Positions 10,940 through 35,650 of a DNA stretch of 64,000 nucleotides are shown here, in pieces. Source of the stretch: an uncultured Gammaproteobacteria bacterium (GTDB lineage Bacteria; Patescibacteriota; Microgenomatia; Levybacterales; UBA12049); contig CAZAZU010000001.1 of the NCBI GenBank assembly GCA_964490105.1, forward strand, positions 646,245 through 710,244, written 5' to 3'. Under the pieces are notes generated by a model, which was given only the letters and a program-made list of their open reading frames with translations, had not been told where the DNA came from and did not search any database. Both the position numbers and the translations under genes were made by a program. Numbering within the stretch: the first letter of the stretch is position 1; the number at the start of each line of letters is the position of its first letter.

Positions 10940-13900
10940 TTATTCCATGGCTTTGACATGTGTTTCGATAAAATTTTTTTCTTTGTCATCAAGTCCATAT
11001 TTTTTATAAAGCTGCTTATCTATTTCAGAAACAGATTTTGTCCATTGTATATCTGATTTATCAGTAAAATCTTGAAGGGGGATGAATTTATACGTCTTTG
11101 AAGTAGCGTCTTGACTTGCTTTATTAAGGCTATGCAGAAATCTAGCAAATTTGGACTGTAAATATCTAGAAAGGTTATATGAAGAAAGTTTGTCTAATTT
11201 CAATTTTGCACCAATTACAACATAAGATTCCGTACAAATGGTATTTGGGTAACCAATAAATGTGTTTAAATTATCGTCATTTAACTCAGTCCCGATATTG
11301 TTTGCTCTTGGGGTGAATACTTTGTAATTATTAATCCAGTCTGTATTCCTTGTGATTTCACTCCTTTCTAAATAACCTATTTTTTTACCTTTTCCGTAGC
11401 AAGTAACAGGATGCCTCAAATTCTCTTTAGAAGACCTAAAAATCTTTGAATTCTTAATTATGTCACCATCTAAATTGAAAGGCCGTCGTGATGAAACATG
11501 AACTTCAAGAGATTTAAACTCGGAATAAGATTTAATTTTTTTAAGTATAGTTATCGCCTGAAAGTGTCGGATAAAAATATCAAAGCCTTCTGTGCTCAAG
11601 CTACGTGTACTAATTTTTGGCGATAAGTTATTCTCATATGTAAATATTTTGGTTAGATTCTTTGTATTATTGTAATTCCTATCCCATAATAGGTAACAAA
11701 TTCCTCCTCTTAAATTTATTTGTGGAAAAATTAATTCCGGATTAAGAAAATCATGTAGTTCAGTTATATGAATATCATTTAACATTCGAGCCCTAAAATC
11801 ATCCAAACCTTTACCACCCGCATACCAACGCGTTGGCATAATCATAGATATGTAGTGAGGTTTAAGGTTTTTAGCCATTTCAAAGAAAAGATTATAGACA
11901 GGCTTAGCGCTAGCCTGAGCTCCTCCATCCTTTTGCTGATAAGGGGGGTTTCCTACAATTGCTGTAAATTTCATATTATTCTTTTCTGACATAGTACCAT
12001 AAGTCTTCAAATCATCTATTGATATCTCACAGAACTTTTTATCTTGGAACAATAAATACTCAATTTCTTCATCTTTCAACTTGATAAGATCAAATGAATA
12101 GAAAAGCCTGGCAATATTATCTACATTTAAACCCAACGCTTCATACATTTTTCGAGTAAATTCATATGCAACTGGTGAGGTAGGAATTGAATAAAAATTA
12201 TTTCGTACTTCTTCTAAATTTATGCCAATATTAGTGACCTTTTCCACAAAACCCTTCGCAAAACTTCCTGATTTACTAGCTAAATCCAAAATTTTTGTAT
12301 GCTTAATATTGTCCCAAAACTTTTCATCAAAAGCGCGGTACATTTCGTTAACGATATGTGAGGGAGTAAAAACTTCTGCTTCAGACAGTCGTCCAAATTT
12401 ATTTATGGCAATTTCGATATGCTCAACCGGTGAAATACTCCCATCGTATGAACGAAAATCCGAATTTTGAATTTTATAATCAAGAGCACTCAGTACAAAT
12501 GGATTGATATTTTTGCGAATGAGCATTAGATCCTCTTTATTAATGCCAAGATTTTGGGCAATGCGACGATTATCATCATTTACATCAATATTAGATATAA
12601 CATCGGTTAAGGATTTTTCTTCAGTAGAAGATAGAAATGCAAATAGAAGAATCATCACATAATATGTGCGGAAACGCTTTTCAAATGATGAGATTTCTTC
12701 ACTATCTCCTTCTTTCTCTATAGATGATGTTGCCTTACTGCCTGCTCCTTCAATTCCATTTTCCACACCTTCTCCTTCTAAATCTATTCCGTCTTCTTCA
12801 TTTGGCTTAATATTAATCCCATTCTTCCCACCAAGCTCTGGCAATTCACTAATAACCTCATAAATCGCTTGGTTGTCTTTTAACGAAGCATCAATACCAA
12901 TTTCTTTTACATCTTCAATTATCGTTCTGTCGTTTACATATTTACGGACTTCATCGATAATTCTTGTAGCTGTTACTTCAACAAGTTTATTTCTCTCGGC
13001 ATTAAGCGTTATGATAGGCGAAATTTTAAGTTCTCGTTGAATGAACTCTTCGATATTTTCATTTCCTATTTTCTGTGTATTTGCGCCATAAGTAAATGCT
13101 TTCATTTCTTGAAGGTAAAAAAGCCTTGTTGGATCGAGGTCTACCAAAAGTGTTTGTGGTTTCATGTCATATTTAATAAAATCGCCATTTTTATCTTGAT
13201 ATTTCTCAACCCAAGGTGACTGTAAACGAAATATCGCCTGATCATATTCTTGTGGACTTGTCGTAGATTTAAGATAGATCATAGTATCCCATTGTGGTAC
13301 GGTAGAGCCAGTAAGCATTTTATTAACTGTTAAGGTAATTGTCTTTTTACCTTTTGATTCAGCGTATGATATCGCTGACTTAATTTCCTCTGGTGTTATG
13401 AGTTTTTTATTATATCCACTAATATTAAAGATTTCATATTCAGAAATATTCTTAAATAATGATAAATTAGTTAAAATAAGTTTTTCGAAAGCATCACATG
13501 ATGCGCAGTACGGCAACACAACAACTATGTGTTGCGCGAGCTTGCCTGCTTTAATAGTCTCGTTGTCGAGCAAACCAAGCATGTTGGCATCTTTTTTAGA
13601 ACCATCAAGTACTTGAAGCAATTCAATAATTTCTTGTTCATAAACAAAAGATTCATAGTCGCCATTCCTACTGATACTTACAGGGGTGAATAATTCGGCT
13701 GGTTTGCTACCCGGAATATTAGCAAGCTTTTTGCGTGAACTTTCATTGGGATTAAACGCAAAACGAATCATCTGCGGAAATCCATAATATGGATTGTCCC
13801 ATTCGTTTTCATCCAAATGATCCTCGTTCCAGTTTAATTTTGCTTCGTAAATATCGCCAAATTGTACAAAAGCAATAATATCCTCTTTATTAAACTCACT

Positions 13901-14971
13901 TCCCATCAAGATGCGATATGGAGTCCCGGAAAGGTGAAGTTTAATTTTAGCCTTTATTGATACGAGCTTAGTAAGAGAACCAAAATCAACCGGGTCTTCT
14001 TTGTCATTCTTTAGTAATTCTTTATCTTCATCATCAATTTCCAGTCCTGCAAGAATCTTACCCAGTACTTTTGCTCGAGCTCCAAAGTGTGTCTCATCGA
14101 TAATCAACAGATCTACACTAACTGTTTTTAAAATTTCATGGTGTTTTTTTATATTTTCTGAAGAACCTGCAAGGTCTTGTAATGTGAGAAATAAAACAAC
14201 ATTTGTACAATTCTCCTCTCCAATACCCGTCTTAAATTTTTGGTCATAAAAATCTGACAATCTCAATCCTCTTTTGAGATCGTCTTTATCAATAAAACGG
14301 TAACCTGCAAAATCCTTGTGACTTTCTACAGTTTGCTTCCATTCCGACCGCACATCTGCTTTTGCAGAGACTATAACCGTAAACTTAGAGTCAATACTTT
14401 TAGCGCTCCACATCGAAGTAATTGACTTTCCAAAACGCATAACAGCATACATGAGAAGATTAGTACGACCATTTTTTACAGCTGAATTGAATGCATTTAT
14501 GACATTTTGTTGGTTTTCGCGTGGGAGATAATCCTGTGTTCGACTGTAATGATATTCTATAATCTCCCTTGAGTTATTGTAATATTCATATTTATCTGTC
14601 TTTTGATAATTATTTACAATATCATTCACGGCATTAGTTATCTCAATCTCGCCAATTCCTTCAAAAAACTCCGTAGAATAAATATTTTTCAAAATATTCA
14701 AAGGGATTTGAGTAAAACCATTTTGCTGCAGATATTTATGTACAGAATAATCACGGAAAAATACTTTGCCATCAATTGATGCTTTATGACGAGAGATCTC
14801 TTTTAAGTCTTTATAGTATCGCCTCCATTCATTCAGTCGCTCCTCAACTGGGCGATAGGTATCTCCCACTTTCAGATAGTTCGGGAGGGTATTTGTTGCA
14901 AAAGAATAGATATAGGGAGACACCCGACCGATAATTATTTTTTGTAATTCTGAAGTATTTATCCTAGACAT
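10940..14971 (-). CDS. Single-chain T5orf172(GIY-YIG-like)-SF2 helicase-N6-adenine methyltransferase-TRD protein (Type ISP-like restriction-modification/defence enzyme)
   Basis: 1343 aa. N-terminus YIYSFATNTLPNYLKVGDTYRPVEERLNEW (T5orf172/GIY-YIG-like). Helicase Walker A MRFGKSITS and DEAH-like LIIDETHF. Helicase C motifs MLTGSTVP and QAIFRLQSP. Methyltransferase motif X EVFTPSHIV, motif I ILDLASKSGSFAKGF, motif IV IVGNPPYQQ. About 300 aa C-terminal putative target-recognition region. Confidence 0.75.
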   Translation of the reverse strand: MSRINTSELQKIIIGRVSPYIYSFATNTLPNYLKVGDTYRPVEERLNEWRRYYKDLKEISRHKASIDGKVFFRDYSVHKYLQQNGFTQIPLNILKNIYSTEFFEGIGEIEITNAVNDIVNNYQKTDKYEYYNNSREIIEYHYSRTQDYLPRENQQNVINAFNSAVKNGRTNLLMYAVMRFGKSITSMWSAKSIDSKFTVIVSAKADVRSEWKQTVESHKDFAGYRFIDKDDLKRGLRLSDFYDQKFKTGIGEENCTNVVLFLTLQDLAGSSENIKKHHEILKTVSVDLLIIDETHFGARAKVLGKILAGLEIDDEDKELLKNDKEDPVDFGSLTKLVSIKAKIKLHLSGTPYRILMGSEFNKEDIIAFVQFGDIYEAKLNWNEDHLDENEWDNPYYGFPQMIRFAFNPNESSRKKLANIPGSKPAELFTPVSISRNGDYESFVYEQEIIELLQVLDGSKKDANMLGLLDNETIKAGKLAQHIVVVLPYCASCDAFEKLILTNLSLFKNISEYEIFNISGYNKKLITPEEIKSAISYAESKGKKTITLTVNKMLTGSTVPQWDTMIYLKSTTSPQEYDQAIFRLQSPWVEKYQDKNGDFIKYDMKPQTLLVDLDPTRLFYLQEMKAFTYGANTQKIGNENIEEFIQRELKISPIITLNAERNKLVEVTATRIIDEVRKYVNDRTIIEDVKEIGIDASLKDNQAIYEVISELPELGGKNGINIKPNEEDGIDLEGEGVENGIEGAGSKATSSIEKEGDSEEISSFEKRFRTYYVMILLFAFLSSTEEKSLTDVISNIDVNDDNRRIAQNLGINKEDLMLIRKNINPFVLSALDYKIQNSDFRSYDGSISPVEHIEIAINKFGRLSEAEVFTPSHIVNEMYRAFDEKFWDNIKHTKILDLASKSGSFAKGFVEKVTNIGINLEEVRNNFYSIPTSPVAYEFTRKMYEALGLNVDNIARLFYSFDLIKLKDEEIEYLLFQDKKFCEISIDDLKTYGTMSEKNNMKFTAIVGNPPYQQKDGGAQASAKPVYNLFFEMAKNLKPHYISMIMPTRWYAGGKGLDDFRARMLNDIHITELHDFLNPELIFPQINLRGGICYLLWDRNYNNTKNLTKIFTYENNLSPKISTRSLSTEGFDIFIRHFQAITILKKIKSYSEFKSLEVHVSSRRPFNLDGDIIKNSKIFRSSKENLRHPVTCYGKGKKIGYLERSEITRNTDWINNYKVFTPRANNIGTELNDDNLNTFIGYPNTICTESYVVIGAKLKLDKLSSYNLSRYLQSKFARFLHSLNKASQDATSKTYKFIPLQDFTDKSDIQWTKSVSEIDKQLYKKYGLDDKEKNFIETHVKAME

Positions 14972-15053: not shown

Positions 15054-15503
15054 CTAATTACTTTCCTCTATTAATAATCCTGCGTTTTTACGCTGCTCCA
15101 TAATCCGCCCCTGCTGAATTAAAATTCTATCTTTATATTCTTTAGCGCTGGTAAATGCGTTTGCGACCTCAGCGGGATTTGTTTCGTAAAGATTCATATC
15201 AGTAATTTTAGAAAAATTTGATCCTTGAACATAATAAAGTCTTGATAATTCTTCATAACCTGAAATGAGATTCAGATATTTTTCGTTTTTATCTTCCAGA
15301 TCTCCATAAGGAACTTTTTGAATATTTCCCTCAATAATTAATGTAAATAAAATTCCCAGAACAAAAAAACCAAGAGCAGAAGACGCTCCTAATATAAGTT
15401 TTGGGATTTTTTTATAAAACCGCGGAAGTATCTCAAAAGCCAGTTTTTTATATGTTTTTATTAAAAATTTAAAAGGAGATAATAATTTAGATAGGCCTGC
15501 CAT
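15054..15503 (-). CDS. Membrane-anchored hypothetical protein
   Basis: 149 aa. Internal TM ILGASSALGFFVLGILFTLII. No motif recognised. Confidence 0.45.
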   Translation of the reverse strand: MAGLSKLLSPFKFLIKTYKKLAFEILPRFYKKIPKLILGASSALGFFVLGILFTLIIEGNIQKVPYGDLEDKNEKYLNLISGYEELSRLYYVQGSNFSKITDMNLYETNPAEVANAFTSAKEYKDRILIQQGRIMEQRKNAGLLIEESN

Positions 15504-15584
15504 TTCAGGCGATTATAGTACTTAAGAAATAAAAAAGATACACTTTGACCTAATTGACTTTTTTATCCTCAAGTTTTAAAGTTT

Positions 15585-15887
15585 ATAAACTCCGAATAGA
15601 TAGGAGAAAGGCTCAGTTGACGACCTGTTCGCAGGTCGGATGCTGAAACGATTGACCATCTTAAGCGCATTCAATAAATTTTCATTTGGAGAAACCCTAT
15701 GGCAGGACAAATGAAAGATGGCACCGCTAAGGAGTCCCTCTTCTGGGGGCAAGTGCCGTCTGCTATGACAAAAGAATGAGATGATTCTTCAAAATTCCGA
15801 AGAATTCTAGGGATTTTGATGGTGGCAGGAATGCAATCAGGGAAAGAGAGTGAATGGGCATCTACCCAGGATCTCTCTTTTTTTATT
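15585..15887 (+). ncRNA. Candidate unclassified structured RNA (~300 nt) with putative promoter (TTGACT 15554..15559, N17, TAAAGT) and 3' intrinsic terminator
   Basis: About 45% GC versus ~30% flanks. No convincing ORF. Ends in a hairpin plus T-run. I could not match it to the tmRNA, RNase P, SRP or 6S conserved motifs. Confidence 0.2.
15843..15887 (+). terminator. Rho-independent terminator-like hairpin (aaagagag ... ctctcttt) followed by a T-run, functional only in + orientation
   Basis: Stem 15843..15850 pairs with 15873..15880, with an internal GGG/CCC sub-stem, then ttttt. No + strand CDS precedes it, implying an unannotated + strand transcript. Confidence 0.35.
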
Positions 15888-16160
15888 CTCCAAAAGACAC
15901 TTCAGGCTGCATACCAGGCTTCGGAGTAAGTCTTCTTATATGAAAGTCTTGAAGCAATATAATTTGCCTAAAATTAATACATGGATGACAAGAAGTGGGA
16001 GGAAGGCTCTTGTAATGTGCATTTCTTACATGATCAGCAAATTGTCGCACGGTAGCACTTCGCTCCTCTCTTAAAACTTCCAGCTCAATGCCATTTGGAT
16101 TTACTCCGTTTTCCATCTGCGGATTTTACCATATTTTCTTACAAATGACTATAGGATATA

Positions 16161-16727
16161 TTAAGGAGCTGGAGTAGGACTTTCTGCAGGGCTAATAGTT
16201 GGATCCACTGAGACTTGGGGATTAGGACTTGGGGCTGCAGTTTGGGATTTAAAATCCAATAATTCTATTTCAAAAATTAGAGGGGTATTTGGCGGAATTG
16301 GCCCAGAGCCAGCTGCTCCATACGCTAAATCTGAAGGAATTCCTATTTGCCTCTTCCCTCCAATTTTCATACCTACCACTCCTAGCTCGACACCTTTTAT
16401 AACCTGCCCTGCACCTACCTGAAAGGTTAATGGAGAGTTTTTTTGATATGAATCATCAAATATCTTTCCATCCATAAACGCTCCCTTATAATGAATCGTA
16501 ACGATGTCACCAGCTACAACTGCAGCAGAAGAAGTTCCTACATTTAAATCTCTTCCAGTTAATTCAGTTAGGGGTACCGGAGTAGGCGTTACCCCTTTTG
16601 CACCTAAGTTTAGAACCGTAAGGTCTTCGCCCATTTTAGGTAATTTATTAGATTGAAAAACGAGAAGAACCATGAGAAGTATTAGAAGTCCAAATGCGCC
16701 AATTGCAATTAAGTGTTTGTTTTCCAC
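16161..16727 (-). CDS. FKBP-type peptidyl-prolyl cis-trans isomerase, membrane anchored, Pro/Ser-rich C-terminal tail
   Basis: 188 aa. GDIVTIHYKGAFMDGKIFDDSY...LIFEIELLDF FKBP core. N-terminal TM. Confidence 0.85.
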   Translation of the reverse strand: MENKHLIAIGAFGLLILLMVLLVFQSNKLPKMGEDLTVLNLGAKGVTPTPVPLTELTGRDLNVGTSSAAVVAGDIVTIHYKGAFMDGKIFDDSYQKNSPLTFQVGAGQVIKGVELGVVGMKIGGKRQIGIPSDLAYGAAGSGPIPPNTPLIFEIELLDFKSQTAAPSPNPQVSVDPTISPAESPTPAP

Positions 16728-16752
16728 GTGGGCTATTATAGCAAATGGAGAT

Positions 16753-16992
16753 TTATGCGTTTTTGGCTTTAGCGAGTTTTAATTTTTCTCTTTTCTGCGC
16801 ATCATCCGCAATGACTTTATCAAATGCTGCCTGACATTCTTTATTTGTACAAATTAGTTGAGTGTGTTGAAGAGTCATGAATCCACCTGTGTTTTTAATT
16901 TTTTCAGTCCAGGTTTTAGCTACTTTTCTTTTAGATCCGCATCTATCGCAGGGCATTTCACTTCTTGGAATTGAATTTCCGATTTTTGGCAT
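16753..16992 (-). CDS. Small zinc-ribbon protein (4 Cys), unknown function
   Basis: 79 aa. CDRC ... CTNKEC. Lys-rich C-terminus. Confidence 0.45.
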   Translation of the reverse strand: MPKIGNSIPRSEMPCDRCGSKRKVAKTWTEKIKNTGGFMTLQHTQLICTNKECQAAFDKVIADDAQKREKLKLAKAKNA

Positions 16993-17116
16993 ATTTATTC
17001 AGGCAAGTGAGTTAAAAATCGAGGAAAAATTTAAATTTAATCAGGAATTAACTCTAAAGCTATTATAGCAGATTCCGACCTATAAACCTAATGACTGATT
17101 CTGATATAATCTAGCC

Positions 17117-22161: not shown

Positions 22162-23436
22162 ATGGATGAAAAAGAGCAGGCAATAGCCGCCATAAGAAAA
22201 AAACTTGTTGGAAAAGACCTTAATTATAAGGAAATTTTTGCCATCATGGACCAAATCTCCAAAGAAAAACTGGGAGATGTTTTAACGACTTATTTCGCAG
22301 CTTCTGGATTTTCAAAGGGCTTTTCAGACGATGAAATTTATTATCTAACTAAAGCGATGATTGAGACCGGAGAAAAACTAAATTTCTCAGGAATTGTTGC
22401 GGACAAACACTCAATCGGAGGAGTTCCTGGAACTAGAACTACTATGATAGTAGTTCCCATCGTCGCAGCAGCAGGTTTTAAGATACCCAAGAGCTCTTCA
22501 CGCGCTATTACTACTCCAGGCGGAACAGCTGATGATTTTGAAATTTTAGCACCAGTAAACCTGAGCAAACAAAAAATTTATGCGACAGTTAAAAAAACTA
22601 ATGGATGTATAGTTTGGGGTGGAAGTTTTAATATAGCGCCAGCTGACGACGTAATTATAAAAGTAGAGGAAGTTCTTCTTTTTGAATCTTTCGATAAAAT
22701 TCTTATCTCAATCATGGCAAAAAAAGTAGCTTTTGGAAGTAATCACGTAGTAATTGATATTCCGTATGGTGAGTCTGTAAAGGTACATAATGTTAATGAC
22801 GCAAAGCTTCTTAAGAGAAAATTCATCGAGCTTGCGAAAAAATTTGATGTCAAAATAGAAGTTTTAATTCATAAGACTGATGAACCAGCTGGGCGTGGTA
22901 TCGGTCCAGTTCTTGAGACTAAAGAATCACTATTAGTTCTTGAACAGGATCCAAAAAGAGCGCCGGATCTAGAAGCAAGAAGTATAAATCTAGCAGGAAG
23001 TCTTTTGGAACTTTGTCTTGCGAGCAGCCCGGCAGCATTTAGAAACAAAATAATTAAAGAACATAAAAATGGATTTAATTGGGCGCTTCATATTCTCCTC
23101 TCAGGTCTTGCGCTGTCAAAATTCAAGCAAATTATAAAAGCACAAGGCGGAGACGCAAATGTAACAAGTAAAGACTTAAAACCTGGTAAACATAAATTCG
23201 AATACGTTGCCCCAAAAAATTGTGAAATTGCAGGCTTTAACATAAAAAATCTTACAATGATAACTAGAATTCTTGGCGCTCCCGATATGAAATCAGCAGG
23301 CATTTATTTAAATAAGAAAATTGGAGAGAAAGCTCGCAAGAACGAGCCAATCTGTACTTTTTACTCCGATTCTGTGTATAATCTTAAAGAAGGAAAAGAG
23401 TCATTAGAAAACTTCCCTTTAGTAAAGTTTAAATGA
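22162..23436 (+). CDS. Thymidine phosphorylase family protein (pyrimidine-nucleoside / AMP phosphorylase-like)
   Basis: 424 aa. DKHSIGGVPG phosphate-binding motif and SSRAITTPGGTADDFE. Confidence 0.8.
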   Translation: MDEKEQAIAAIRKKLVGKDLNYKEIFAIMDQISKEKLGDVLTTYFAASGFSKGFSDDEIYYLTKAMIETGEKLNFSGIVADKHSIGGVPGTRTTMIVVPIVAAAGFKIPKSSSRAITTPGGTADDFEILAPVNLSKQKIYATVKKTNGCIVWGGSFNIAPADDVIIKVEEVLLFESFDKILISIMAKKVAFGSNHVVIDIPYGESVKVHNVNDAKLLKRKFIELAKKFDVKIEVLIHKTDEPAGRGIGPVLETKESLLVLEQDPKRAPDLEARSINLAGSLLELCLASSPAAFRNKIIKEHKNGFNWALHILLSGLALSKFKQIIKAQGGDANVTSKDLKPGKHKFEYVAPKNCEIAGFNIKNLTMITRILGAPDMKSAGIYLNKKIGEKARKNEPICTFYSDSVYNLKEGKESLENFPLVKFK

Positions 23437-33994: not shown

Positions 33995-35650
33995 TTAAAC
34001 TTCTATAACAACCGGGAGAACGAGAGGACGGCGTTTTAACTTTTTTAATAAATATCTTTCAGATACAGTTCCTATGTTTCGTCTTAGGTAATTCCAATCG
34101 TTTATTTTAGTCTTCTTTGGTTTTAAGTTCATGCTAATTTCCGAAGATAAACCATTTATAATTTCATTTACTTCAGCTCCTGAAAAACCCCTAACAATAA
34201 TATTTGGTTTATCTACTAGCCCTCCAAAGGTATCAATTTCTGCAAGTACTATTACGACTCCTTCTTTTGAAATTTTCTCACGGTCCCGCAAAACAAAAGT
34301 GTCTACCTCTTCACCTGATACTTGATCTACGTAAACATTTTGAAGAGAAATCTTCTTACCAAGCTTTGCATCAGTCTTTGTGAATATAACTTCTTGTCCG
34401 TCGTCAGGAAGTAAAACATCTTTTTCTAAAAATCCATTTTTCATAGCCAGCGCTTTATATGCAATCATGTGCTTATACCCTCCGCCAATTGGAAGAACCT
34501 TACGAGGTCTCACGAGACTCATCATTAAAGATAAATCTCCCTGAGGTCCGTGGCCTGAAACATGAAGACCGTGCTCTACATCTGAATATAAAACTCTTGC
34601 TCCTGATTTTGCGAGATCATCAATTAAAGAGTTAACTGCAACTTCATTTCCGGGAATCGCATCTGAAGAAAATGCAACTGTGTCTTTTGAATTAATCATA
34701 ATATCTCTATGATCTCCCCTAGCAATTCTTGATAACGCTGAATTTTCTTGACCCTGACTCCCTGCAACTACTAAAACTATTTGTTTATTGTTATAGTTTC
34801 TGACATCCTTGAGCTCGATTTCCATGTTTTTATCAATCTTCATGTAACCAAGTCCTGTTGCCACATCTTTAGCTTTTAGAAGAGAACGACCAACAAAGCA
34901 AATTCTTCTATTTAGAATTCTTGCTGCGTCAACAACTTGATTTAGTCGTGCTATGTTTGAAGAATAAGTGGTCATTATAAATTTACCTTGAGTGTTTCTC
35001 ATTTCATCAAATATTTTATTTCCAATTCCGATTTCTGTTTCTGTAAATCCGGTTCTTTCAGCTCCGAGACAATCAGACATTAAACACATTATTCCTTCAT
35101 CGGCCTTTCTCACAATCTTTGCAAAATCACTTTTTTTCCCGTCGTATGGAGTCATATCAAATTTAAAATCTGAACCATGATAAATATTTCCAACAGGAGT
35201 TTTAATAAAAATGTTTGACGTATCTGGCACTGAGTGAGTAACTCTGATAAACGATAACATGAAATTTCCGAGCAAAATATCCTTATCAAAGTTCACGCTA
35301 ATCGCTTTTTTATTTAAACCAAACTCTTTTAATTTTTCATTTATAAAACCAGCTGTAAGAGGAGTCGCATAGATATTAAAATTTCCCTGAAGCTGCGGAA
35401 GAATATATGGAAGTGCTCCAAGATGATCTTCGTGTCCATGAGTGATGGCAATTCCTATGATTTTTTTATTTGGATTTTTTTGAAAATATGAAATATCCGG
35501 AAGCATAAGATCCACACCAATCATTGTTTCATCGGCAAAACCAAGTCCACAGTCCACAATTAGAACCTGGTCATTATATTCATAAAGATGCATATTCTTT
35601 GTGACTCCTGTGACTCCTCCCAGAGGAATGTATTTTAAAGTATTATCCAT
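33995..35650 (-). CDS. rnj: Ribonuclease J (metallo-beta-lactamase/beta-CASP)
   Basis: 551 aa. ITHGHEDHLGALPYI (HxHxDH) plus beta-CASP and C-terminal domains. Confidence 0.9.
   Translation of the reverse strand: MDNTLKYIPLGGVTGVTKNMHLYEYNDQVLIVDCGLGFADETMIGVDLMLPDISYFQKNPNKKIIGIAITHGHEDHLGALPYILPQLQGNFNIYATPLTAGFINEKLKEFGLNKKAISVNFDKDILLGNFMLSFIRVTHSVPDTSNIFIKTPVGNIYHGSDFKFDMTPYDGKKSDFAKIVRKADEGIMCLMSDCLGAERTGFTETEIGIGNKIFDEMRNTQGKFIMTTYSSNIARLNQVVDAARILNRRICFVGRSLLKAKDVATGLGYMKIDKNMEIELKDVRNYNNKQIVLVVAGSQGQENSALSRIARGDHRDIMINSKDTVAFSSDAIPGNEVAVNSLIDDLAKSGARVLYSDVEHGLHVSGHGPQGDLSLMMSLVRPRKVLPIGGGYKHMIAYKALAMKNGFLEKDVLLPDDGQEVIFTKTDAKLGKKISLQNVYVDQVSGEEVDTFVLRDREKISKEGVVIVLAEIDTFGGLVDKPNIIVRGFSGAEVNEIINGLSSEISMNLKPKKTKINDWNYLRRNIGTVSERYLLKKLKRRPLVLPVVIEV

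Follow-up and report, generated by a model that had tools for sequence, protein, structure and literature searches.

The 64,000-nucleotide stretch of Patescibacteria DNA analysed here (contig CAZAZU010000001.1, positions 646,245 to 710,244; henceforth the window) carries on its + strand, at positions 15589-15884, a gene of ~296 nt for what we read as an independently transcribed, structured non-coding RNA that falls outside Rfam 15, belongs to one clade of Patescibacteria and would act in trans with a compact fold. For this statement taken as a whole we would put the probability at around 0.6. That the locus holds a real gene for a structured non-coding RNA, of a family so far undescribed, is very probable, judging from the comparison of homologous sequences given below. 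The preliminary description of this region had proposed a structured + strand RNA of unrecognised class running from a promoter to a terminator, and this idea is borne out by the results with Rfam and ARAGORN, by conservation and by covariation. The same description had taken the whole patch of ~550 bp to be non-coding, with weak open reading frames (ORFs) only. This part has to be abandoned, given that the patch is made of two features, the RNA gene at the left (only ~15589-15884) and, in the 3' 235 bp, a genuine gene for a 77-aa protein on the - strand (15883-16116). The raised GC content reported for the patch (~45%) was recovered by measurement (0.455 at 15600-15799 and 0.445 at 15700-15899, against ~0.27-0.39 elsewhere across 12-20 kb), while the background, given as ~30%, is nearer 33-36%.

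Transcription signals and covariation

A sigma-70-type promoter is found on the + strand at 15554-15582 (-35 box TTGACT at 15554-15559, a 17-nt spacer and -10 box TAAAGT at 15577-15582), and from its position the predicted transcription start would be close to A15589. This promoter-like site, already noticed in the preliminary description, was recovered by our scan. The conserved form of the promoter is TTGACA-N17-TAAnnT; TTGAC is invariant across the relatives and the -10 box is kept as either TAAAGT or TAATCT, while the spacer and the upstream flank are variable. At the other end there is an intrinsic terminator (15839-15884, +) composed of a 12-bp basal and a 4-bp apical helix followed by a run of seven U (15878-15884). 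This GC-containing stem-loop with its U-run, the typical makeup of a rho-independent terminator, is preserved in all the full-length homologues, so that the hairpin and T-run described earlier are not only present but conserved, with an apical stem that covaries. A simple terminator scan limited to loops of 8 nt or less missed this hairpin, which has a longer loop. The alignable conservation extends from the -35 box to the U-run and both flanks are unalignable. We have taken the promoter and the U-run as the limits of the RNA gene.

The segment 15588-15890 folds on the + strand with a predicted energy of -97.4 kcal/mol (z = -3.24), better than 100 of 100 shuffled sequences, in agreement with the expectation that a structured RNA was encoded here; the z value of the - strand is -2.0. 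In order to evaluate the fold across relatives, 11 sequences were aligned independently with MAFFT and passed to RNAalifold, which predicted 84 pairs, 29 of them with compensatory changes. Over the resulting structure of 12 helices, 96.5% of the cells are paired, in comparison with 45-51% in controls in which the 3' partners were all slid 1-3 columns away. Pairs that change on both sides (29/84) dropped to 5-11 in the slid controls, and none of 500 shuffles reached the observed values. A model-fitted alignment of 15 sequences gave a very similar picture, with 97.0% of cells paired and 30 compensatory pairs out of 89. Compensatory changes are therefore well above the controls, as is characteristic of a structured non-coding RNA, and the strong conservation and clear covariation that had been anticipated among relatives are indeed there.

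The strand can be assigned from the same data. Cells that pair on the + strand amount to 96.5%, against 85.3% when the alignment is read on the - strand, because the 110 G·U cells of the + strand become A·C on the minus (the A·C cells on the + strand are only 6). In addition, the UUCG tetraloops read correctly on the + strand only.

Secondary structure of the RNA

The molecule would start with an invariant stretch, predicted to be single-stranded (ACUCCGAAU, 15589-15597, +), whose ACUCC might pair at long range with the invariant GGAGU at 15731-15735, although this contact is speculative. It is followed by a 5' domain (15598-15661), a long irregular hairpin that includes P1-P3 and has both-side changes in 11 of its 17 pairs. 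The tip of this domain is variable: the loop is UUCG or UUAAAG, insertions of 13-16 nt are found in four homologues (L052, L058, L060 and L064) and the tip is deleted in another (L065).

The core of the RNA is a predicted four-way junction formed by P4, P5, P6/P7 and P8. The helix that closes it, P4 (GCAUUC/GAAUGC, 15667-15672 with 15829-15834), is paired in 100% of the cells and nearly invariant, with a single C-G to U-G change (in L065); covariation lends it little support because it hardly varies. The P5 hairpin (15680-15716) has a covarying 9-bp stem, five of whose pairs are compensatory (UUCAUUUG/CAAAUGAA, UUUACUUG/CAAGUAAA, UUUGCCUG/CAGGCAAA), and an invariant 19-nt loop, GAGAAACCCUAUGGCAGGA (15689-15707), in which GGAG-N7-AUG is contained. 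The next hairpin (15720-15757) is built of P6 (GGCAC/GUGCC) and P7 (YCCUC/GRGGR), with an invariant UUCU loop at 15741-15744. The two helices are separated by an internal loop of 11 invariant nt, CGCUAAGGAGU (15725-15735), placed opposite YAA. The first pair of P6 is G-C, A-U or C-G depending on the homologue, and the first pair of P7 is C-G in 10 sequences and U-A in the other 5.

P8 (5' strand CUGCUAUGA, 15760-15768 with 15820-15828) is paired in 99% of the cells, with one pair appearing as G-C, G-U or A-U in 6, 6 and 3 sequences respectively. It is predicted to stack on P4, as there are 0 nt between their 3' strands, and ends in a three-way junction with P9 and P10. P9 (15773-15788) has two compensatory pairs out of five and an invariant loop, GAGAUG (15778-15783). 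P10 (15789-15819) has a 10-bp stem with six compensatory pairs and an 11-nt loop, GAAGAAUUCUA (15799-15809; L10 from here on), containing the 8-nt palindrome AGAAUUCU; a GAAUUC or GAGCUC palindrome is found in 14 of the 15 sequences. A local hairpin that can be drawn in the window copy, GAUUCUUC/GAAGAAUC, is unconserved in L050 or L052, and the model with P9 and P10 fits better. Finally, the basal helix of the terminator is paired in 98.9% of the cells and its apical stem (15855-15858/15865-15868) has three compensatory pairs out of four, capped by an invariant loop, CAUCUA (15859-15864). Altogether the hairpin loops are UUCG/UUAAAG, the 19-nt loop of P5, UUCU, GAGAUG, the 11-nt L10 and CAUCUA.

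The AGAUG of the P9 loop and the CAUCU of the terminator loop are complementary over five Watson-Crick pairs; both are invariant in the 15 sequences and both stand on stems that covary. An all-against-all search for covarying columns, aimed at pseudoknots, was swamped by phylogenetic correlation among the few lineages available, and a search restricted to unpaired invariant segments gave three candidate pairings of 5 bp, none of them statistically compelling.

The only conserved AUG of the RNA (15701) is located in the P5 loop, with GGAG 7 nt before it. The distance from this AUG to P6 is 22, 23, 24 or 25 nt depending on the lineage, and the ORFs that start there code for 10, 16, 23 or 26 aa. 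The small ORF of the window (15701-15781, 26 aa) was discarded as a protein gene, its reading frame not being kept among the homologues. We consider the RNA non-coding because the ORFs from the conserved AUG use all three frames.

Homologues and distribution

With the protein of the neighbouring FKBP-type isomerase gene as an anchor, seven close loci were retrieved from the genome collection, and each of them has the left part of the patch, 77-97% identical. The 77-aa gene is missing from four of the seven, where the conserved RNA segment abuts the FKBP stop codon. A single metagenome pattern scan provided only two further loci, L049 and L050, the latter on a 574-kb contig and collinear with the window over 13 kb. 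A further set of loci, L051, L052, L058, L060-63, L064 and L065, all with the RNA, was reached through FKBP homologues of 57-70% identity. The homologues were detected with 237-377 bits by nhmmer and with 281-363 bits by our covariance model (R1); the window copy itself scores 350 bits with R1 over 15585-15890 and has an nhmmer E value of 5e-109. There is one copy per locus and a single one in the window. Identity to the window copy ranges from 63 to 94% over the 15 distinct full-length homologues, whose alignment has 152 invariant columns out of 306. Pattern scans of viral contigs gave 0 matches, and so did blastn of the RNA against phage and plasmid collections.

All 15 loci, which come from Patescibacteria metagenome-assembled genomes (MAGs) and metagenomes, have the RNA facing the same FKBP operon in convergent orientation. 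In none of them is there a same-strand gene after the RNA terminator; the features found downstream, the 77-aa gene, a 242-aa gene or FKBP, are all on the minus strand. Between the RNA terminator and the stop codon of FKBP there is a slot that behaves as a site of variable cargo. It is empty in several MAGs (3 nt; L002 4564-4567), contains the 77-aa gene in others, and where the window has 15885-16160, L050 (342-1070) has an unrelated 242-aa ORF. Directly upstream of the RNA promoter, palindromic CCCGAT...ATCGGG repeats were found in L004, L006 and L038, not in the window; they could be an operator, the terminator of the upstream gene or a small repeat element.

Search among known RNA families

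None of the 4227 covariance models of Rfam 15 gave a gathering-score match in the 64-kb window, out of a genome of ~785 kb. On both strands of the patch only matches at chance level were seen at E<=10, and over 15400-16250 these were limited to snoR27, msr and TD-2 (E = 4-9; 17.7-19.6 bits versus thresholds of 41-52). Four homologues (L058, L060, L052 and L050) compared with Rfam had differing chance matches, none of them shared. ARAGORN detected neither transfer-messenger RNA (tmRNA) nor tRNA genes in the window. Full-text literature searches for structured RNAs of Patescibacteria or of the candidate phyla radiation (CPR), and for the invariant strings, retrieved nothing relevant. At the level of the RNA family the molecule would thus be new, as no relation to any described family is detectable.

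The usual housekeeping RNAs were considered one by one. No RNase P model matched at E<=10, and the P4 pseudoknot formed by CR-I (GAGGAAAGUCC) and CR-V (ACAGAAnnnGGCUUA) was not found. The sole CR-I-like string, GGAGAAAGG (15603-15611), is unconserved across homologues, and a complementary CR-V-like partner could not be drawn by inspection. On the 5' side GAGAAAGG is loosely CR-I-like and reads GAGAUGGG in L052 and AAAAUAGA in L060. Threading by hand onto RNase P, with GGAGAAAGG, GACAAAAGAAUG and AGAUGAUU as look-alikes of CR-I, CR-IV and CR-V, onto helix 8 of the signal recognition particle (SRP) RNA and onto tmRNA found words that were either unconserved or in the wrong topological order. For tmRNA there was no Rfam or ARAGORN match, no tRNA-like acceptor or T-arm and no CCA end, and the internal ORF changes frame. 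SRP RNA (4.5S/scRNA) gave no Rfam match, and the GNAR-tetraloop motif of helix 8 is absent among the hairpin loops. As for 6S RNA, there was no Rfam match and the predicted fold branches at a four-way and a three-way junction instead of forming a rod with a central bubble.

Protein genes around the RNA

The neighbours of the patch, both on the - strand, are a 149-aa ORF at the left (15054-15503) and the FKBP-type isomerase gene at the right (16161-16727). Within the patch, the 77-aa gene at 15883-16116 was predicted by the gene caller and has its stop codon inside the U/A-run of the RNA terminator. By tblastn the protein is found at 48-87% amino acid identity in 8 related loci (among the copies are L005 4237-4470, L038/L040 186-420 and L060 885-1118), with the stop conserved just before the A-run. 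Between the window and L060 the differences by codon position are 3/8/19, with 15 codons showing synonymous changes only and 10 non-synonymous, and the protein is 87% identical between the two, versus 67% for FKBP. The gene being real, the right-hand 235 bp of the patch are coding. It is a lineage-specific gene, present in some relatives and absent in others, and its product has a conserved CH(P/T/E)C motif. No match was obtained in Pfam, NCBIfam, PHROG or PDB, and among 5.8 billion proteins only its own 6-member cluster was matched.

A TGnTAAAAT -10 box ends 6 nt before the AUG of the 77-aa gene, which appears to be leaderless. The same arrangement is frequent in the window, where a TATAAT box (at least 5/6) ends 5-10 nt before the start in 22 of 54 ORFs, compared with 5.4% of all ATGs (examples are found at 15504-15520, 16117-16131, 16728-16745 and 17100-17116), and only 4 of the 54 have GGAG, GAGG or AGGA within 25 nt upstream. 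From these figures, gene starts in the window look predominantly leaderless.

The FKBP gene belongs to a recurrent operon, in which a ~110-aa RRM_1 protein with an RG-rich tail is followed by a zinc-ribbon-like protein of 79-90 aa (CxxC...CxxxC, with a basic tail) and then by FKBP. It was noted at 16753-16992 (-) in the window, L052 6040-6664, L055 644-1254 and L059 20-651. Of the first two genes, the 64 kb of the window contain that of the zinc ribbon and not that of the RRM protein, while the RRM pair of L052 is divergent from the RNA promoter. Adjoining the RNA locus there is a 1343-aa ORF (10940-14971, -) with a ResIII/helicase N-terminal part fused to an Eco57I-type methylase domain. The ORF would probably encode a single-chain restriction-modification enzyme, and relatives do not conserve it there. 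Elsewhere, the window encodes an archaeal-type AMP/thymidine phosphorylase (22162-23436, +) and an RNase J (33995-35650, -), both typical of CPR nucleotide salvage and RNA turnover, as well as a short alanyl-tRNA synthetase of 635 aa. The cluster representative of this synthetase is named Patescibacteria group bacterium, and one FKBP relative Candidatus Levybacteria. Together with the gene content these names point to Patescibacteria, and the label 'uncultured Gammaproteobacteria' under which the close MAGs are deposited is taken to be mistaken.

Possible roles and alternative explanations

We propose, with somewhat less than even confidence, that the RNA acts in trans as a stable molecule with a compact tertiary fold, the invariant single-stranded elements serving to bind a protein or RNA partner. 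The proposal is made because the gene has its own promoter and terminator and no same-strand gene, and combines covarying stems with invariant loops and junctions. Candidate binding surfaces would be the 19-nt L5 loop (that of P5), the 11-nt CGCUAAGGAGU internal loop and L10. A speculative extension is that the fold is locked by a kissing contact of 5 bp between the AGAUG of the P9 loop and the CAUCU of the terminator apical loop, which would explain why an invariant loop is found at the terminator on top of a covarying stem, and would imply a compact fold. It is equally speculative that the palindromic L10 mediates homodimerisation. In L052 and L058 GAAUUC is changed to GAGCUC, a double change of the central AU to GC that keeps the palindrome. 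An intramolecular partner for L10, the GGAGU at 15731-15735, is equally possible. Further still, this could be a new class of large RNA of the genome-reduced, episymbiotic Patescibacteria, either a ribozyme or a self-assembling (homodimeric, kissing-loop) scaffold of RNA or ribonucleoprotein with the terminator built into the fold, a possibility that we find unlikely.

Several observations speak against the picture of a compact, trans-acting RNA or weaken what supports it. The promoter match taken alone is at chance level (7 sites versus 4.7 +/- 1.9 expected), and both the 5' and the 3' ends of the RNA are deduced from sequence signals. The homologues come from one narrow clade and represent ~6-7 independent lineages, and the covariation counts consequently include inherited changes. 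At the FKBP locus, the only place searched in them, the next-closest relatives (L053-L057 and L059, with FKBP at 50-60% identity) have no RNA. Regarding the tertiary contacts, a 5-bp match between some pair of loops has by our estimate a probability of ~0.2 of occurring by chance, which makes the kissing contact a lead only; the proposed contacts use invariant bases exclusively, beyond the reach of covariation; and the L10 palindrome, broken in L051, depends on one compensatory event.

The arrangement of the locus could also suit a riboswitch-like regulator acting as antisense in cis, whose signal-sensing fold would control its own terminator and whose read-through would be antisense to the FKBP operon ([RRM]-zinc ribbon-FKBP). 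The RNA is convergent and close to FKBP in all 15 loci (L002 has the gap of 3 nt), its other flank being variable. The terminator hairpin is a part of the conserved fold, and its apical loop is invariant and complementary to the P9 loop. However, the slot between the terminator and FKBP may contain nothing, the 77-aa gene or the 242-aa gene (~800 nt), which argues against tight coupling, and the synteny within the clade is high anyway, as illustrated by the 13 kb collinear between the window and L050. No convincing conserved anti-terminator was found on inspection, which gave only a weak alternative pairing of 5 bp between the CUCUU of P7 and the AAGAG of the terminator 5' strand, and the U-run and the 12-bp stem look constitutive. 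We regard such a regulator as improbable. The riboswitch-like element that had been offered as an option at the outset fares poorly as well, since a regulated gene downstream on the same strand, as a cis-riboswitch or leader would have, is lacking in the window and in every homologous locus (0 of 15). A different possibility is a decoy, that is, a mimic of a translation initiation region or a protein sponge of the Csr/Rsm type that would titrate 30S subunits or a regulator recognising ribosome-binding sites. Three purine-rich GGA/GGAG motifs (the GGAG-N7-AUG of L5, CAGGA and the UAAGGAG of the internal loop) are invariant and predicted single-stranded, the window copy has 9 GGA triplets, and the adjacent operon of the relatives encodes RRM and zinc-ribbon proteins. 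Yet six of the nine triplets are unconserved in L050 and L052, and the whole molecule, stems included, is far more constrained than the known sponge RNAs. With Shine-Dalgarno motifs in only 4/54 ORFs and 22/54 that look leaderless, a mimic of ribosome-binding sites would have little to compete with. No homologue of CsrA, Hfq or ProQ was found in the 64 kb (~8% of the genome), and for CsrA the homologous loci examined were equally negative. Such a decoy seems to us quite improbable.

The remaining explanations appear still weaker. The size, the raised GC, the presence of promoter and terminator of its own and a conservation above that of the neighbouring proteins would all be expected of a housekeeping RNA (RNase P, tmRNA, SRP or 6S) so divergent in CPR that the Rfam models miss it, and none of these RNAs is annotated elsewhere in the 64 kb. 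Against this, none of their models matched the window or the four homologues, although filters were relaxed and matches up to E<=10 admitted; a P4-type pairing could not be drawn and the hallmarks of tmRNA, SRP and 6S are absent from the fold; we would be very surprised if this were the answer. We are similarly sceptical that a micro-peptide starting at AUG 15701 is encoded, be the transcript a plain mRNA or an RNA of dual function. The sequence GGAG-N7-AUG-GCA-GGA-C is invariant in 15/15 and the first four codons (MAGQ/MAGR) are kept, but past codons 4-7 the ORFs (10/16/23/26 aa) shift through all three frames and 1-nt indels are tolerated within them; besides, the motif is located in the loop of a covarying hairpin and the genes of this organism are mostly leaderless, without Shine-Dalgarno. 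Lastly, the functional strand might be the minus, with the region acting as 3' untranslated region of the 77-aa and FKBP genes or as a long 5' leader of the 149-aa gene. The region does lie between minus-strand genes and its minus fold has a z of -2.0 against shuffles, but the drop in pairing from 96.5% to 85.3%, with 110 G·U cells turning into A·C, the orientation of promoter and U-run and the UUCG tetraloops all point to the + strand. As for the 149-aa gene, the relatives do not have it as the neighbour, and a TATAAT box of its own precedes its AUG by 8 nt. We give this last option practically no credit.

Significance and comparison with known RNAs

Genomes of Patescibacteria are of ~0.6-0.8 Mb, and little of what is non-coding in them has ever been studied. 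An RNA of ~300 nt that remains half-invariant while FKBP drifts to 57% identity likely matters to these cells, and it is invisible to the current annotation based on Rfam. Few large bacterial RNAs combine many conserved helices with invariant junctions, and those described before have proved to be ribozymes, ribonucleoprotein cores or self-assembling particles. Any further RNA of this kind may thus bring new RNA biochemistry and lends itself to structural work. The alignment and the model also make possible a census across CPR genomes and metatranscriptomes.

Among the known systems, RNase P RNA (types A/B) shares with the window RNA a length of ~300-400 nt, a high GC content within an AT-rich genome, a multi-branched shape with long-range helices and a conservation greater than that of the neighbouring proteins. 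Still, the window RNA is without CR-I/CR-V or the P4 pseudoknot and the order of its helices cannot be mapped onto P1-P18. 6S RNA is similarly an independently transcribed RNA of housekeeping style, in which structure prevails over sequence; it consists, however, of one long irregular helix interrupted by a central bubble, whereas the window RNA has junctions and extensive sequence invariance. The sponge RNAs CsrB/RsmZ have in common with it the exposed GGA/AGGA loop motifs, the stand-alone gene and the rho-independent terminator. They differ in that the GGA motifs conserved here are only three, constraint is strong over the whole architecture and the host rarely uses Shine-Dalgarno sequences. 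Antisense-acting riboswitches, such as the B12 riboswitch/AspocR of Listeria and the S-box antisense riboswitch of Clostridium acetobutylicum, resemble the window locus in having a structured element with a terminator that faces a convergent operon. The differences are that no ligand class or anti-terminator is recognised in the window RNA and that its spacing to the operon goes from 3 to ~800 nt.

The raiA motif RNA, OLE, ROOL and GOLLD are all in Rfam and none of them matches the window RNA, with which they have no detectable relation of sequence or structure, and the phylum is different (Patescibacteria). The window RNA is in addition smaller than OLE, ROOL and GOLLD, and it seems to include the terminator hairpin in its fold. 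Their general design is nevertheless alike: stand-alone units of several hundred nt, lineage-restricted, with a function that cannot be deduced from the context and with covarying helices arranged around conserved loops and junctions. Several of these large orphan RNAs have reportedly been seen in recent cryo-EM work to self-assemble through loop-loop contacts, which offers an analogue for the palindromic L10. A second one is the dimerisation initiation site (DIS) hairpin of HIV-1, which dimerises by a kissing loop. The analogy with the latter is of mechanism only, with one compensatory event and the palindrome broken in L051; L10 is likewise a hairpin loop made of a palindrome of 6-8 nt flanked by unpaired purines (GA-AGAAUUCU-A).

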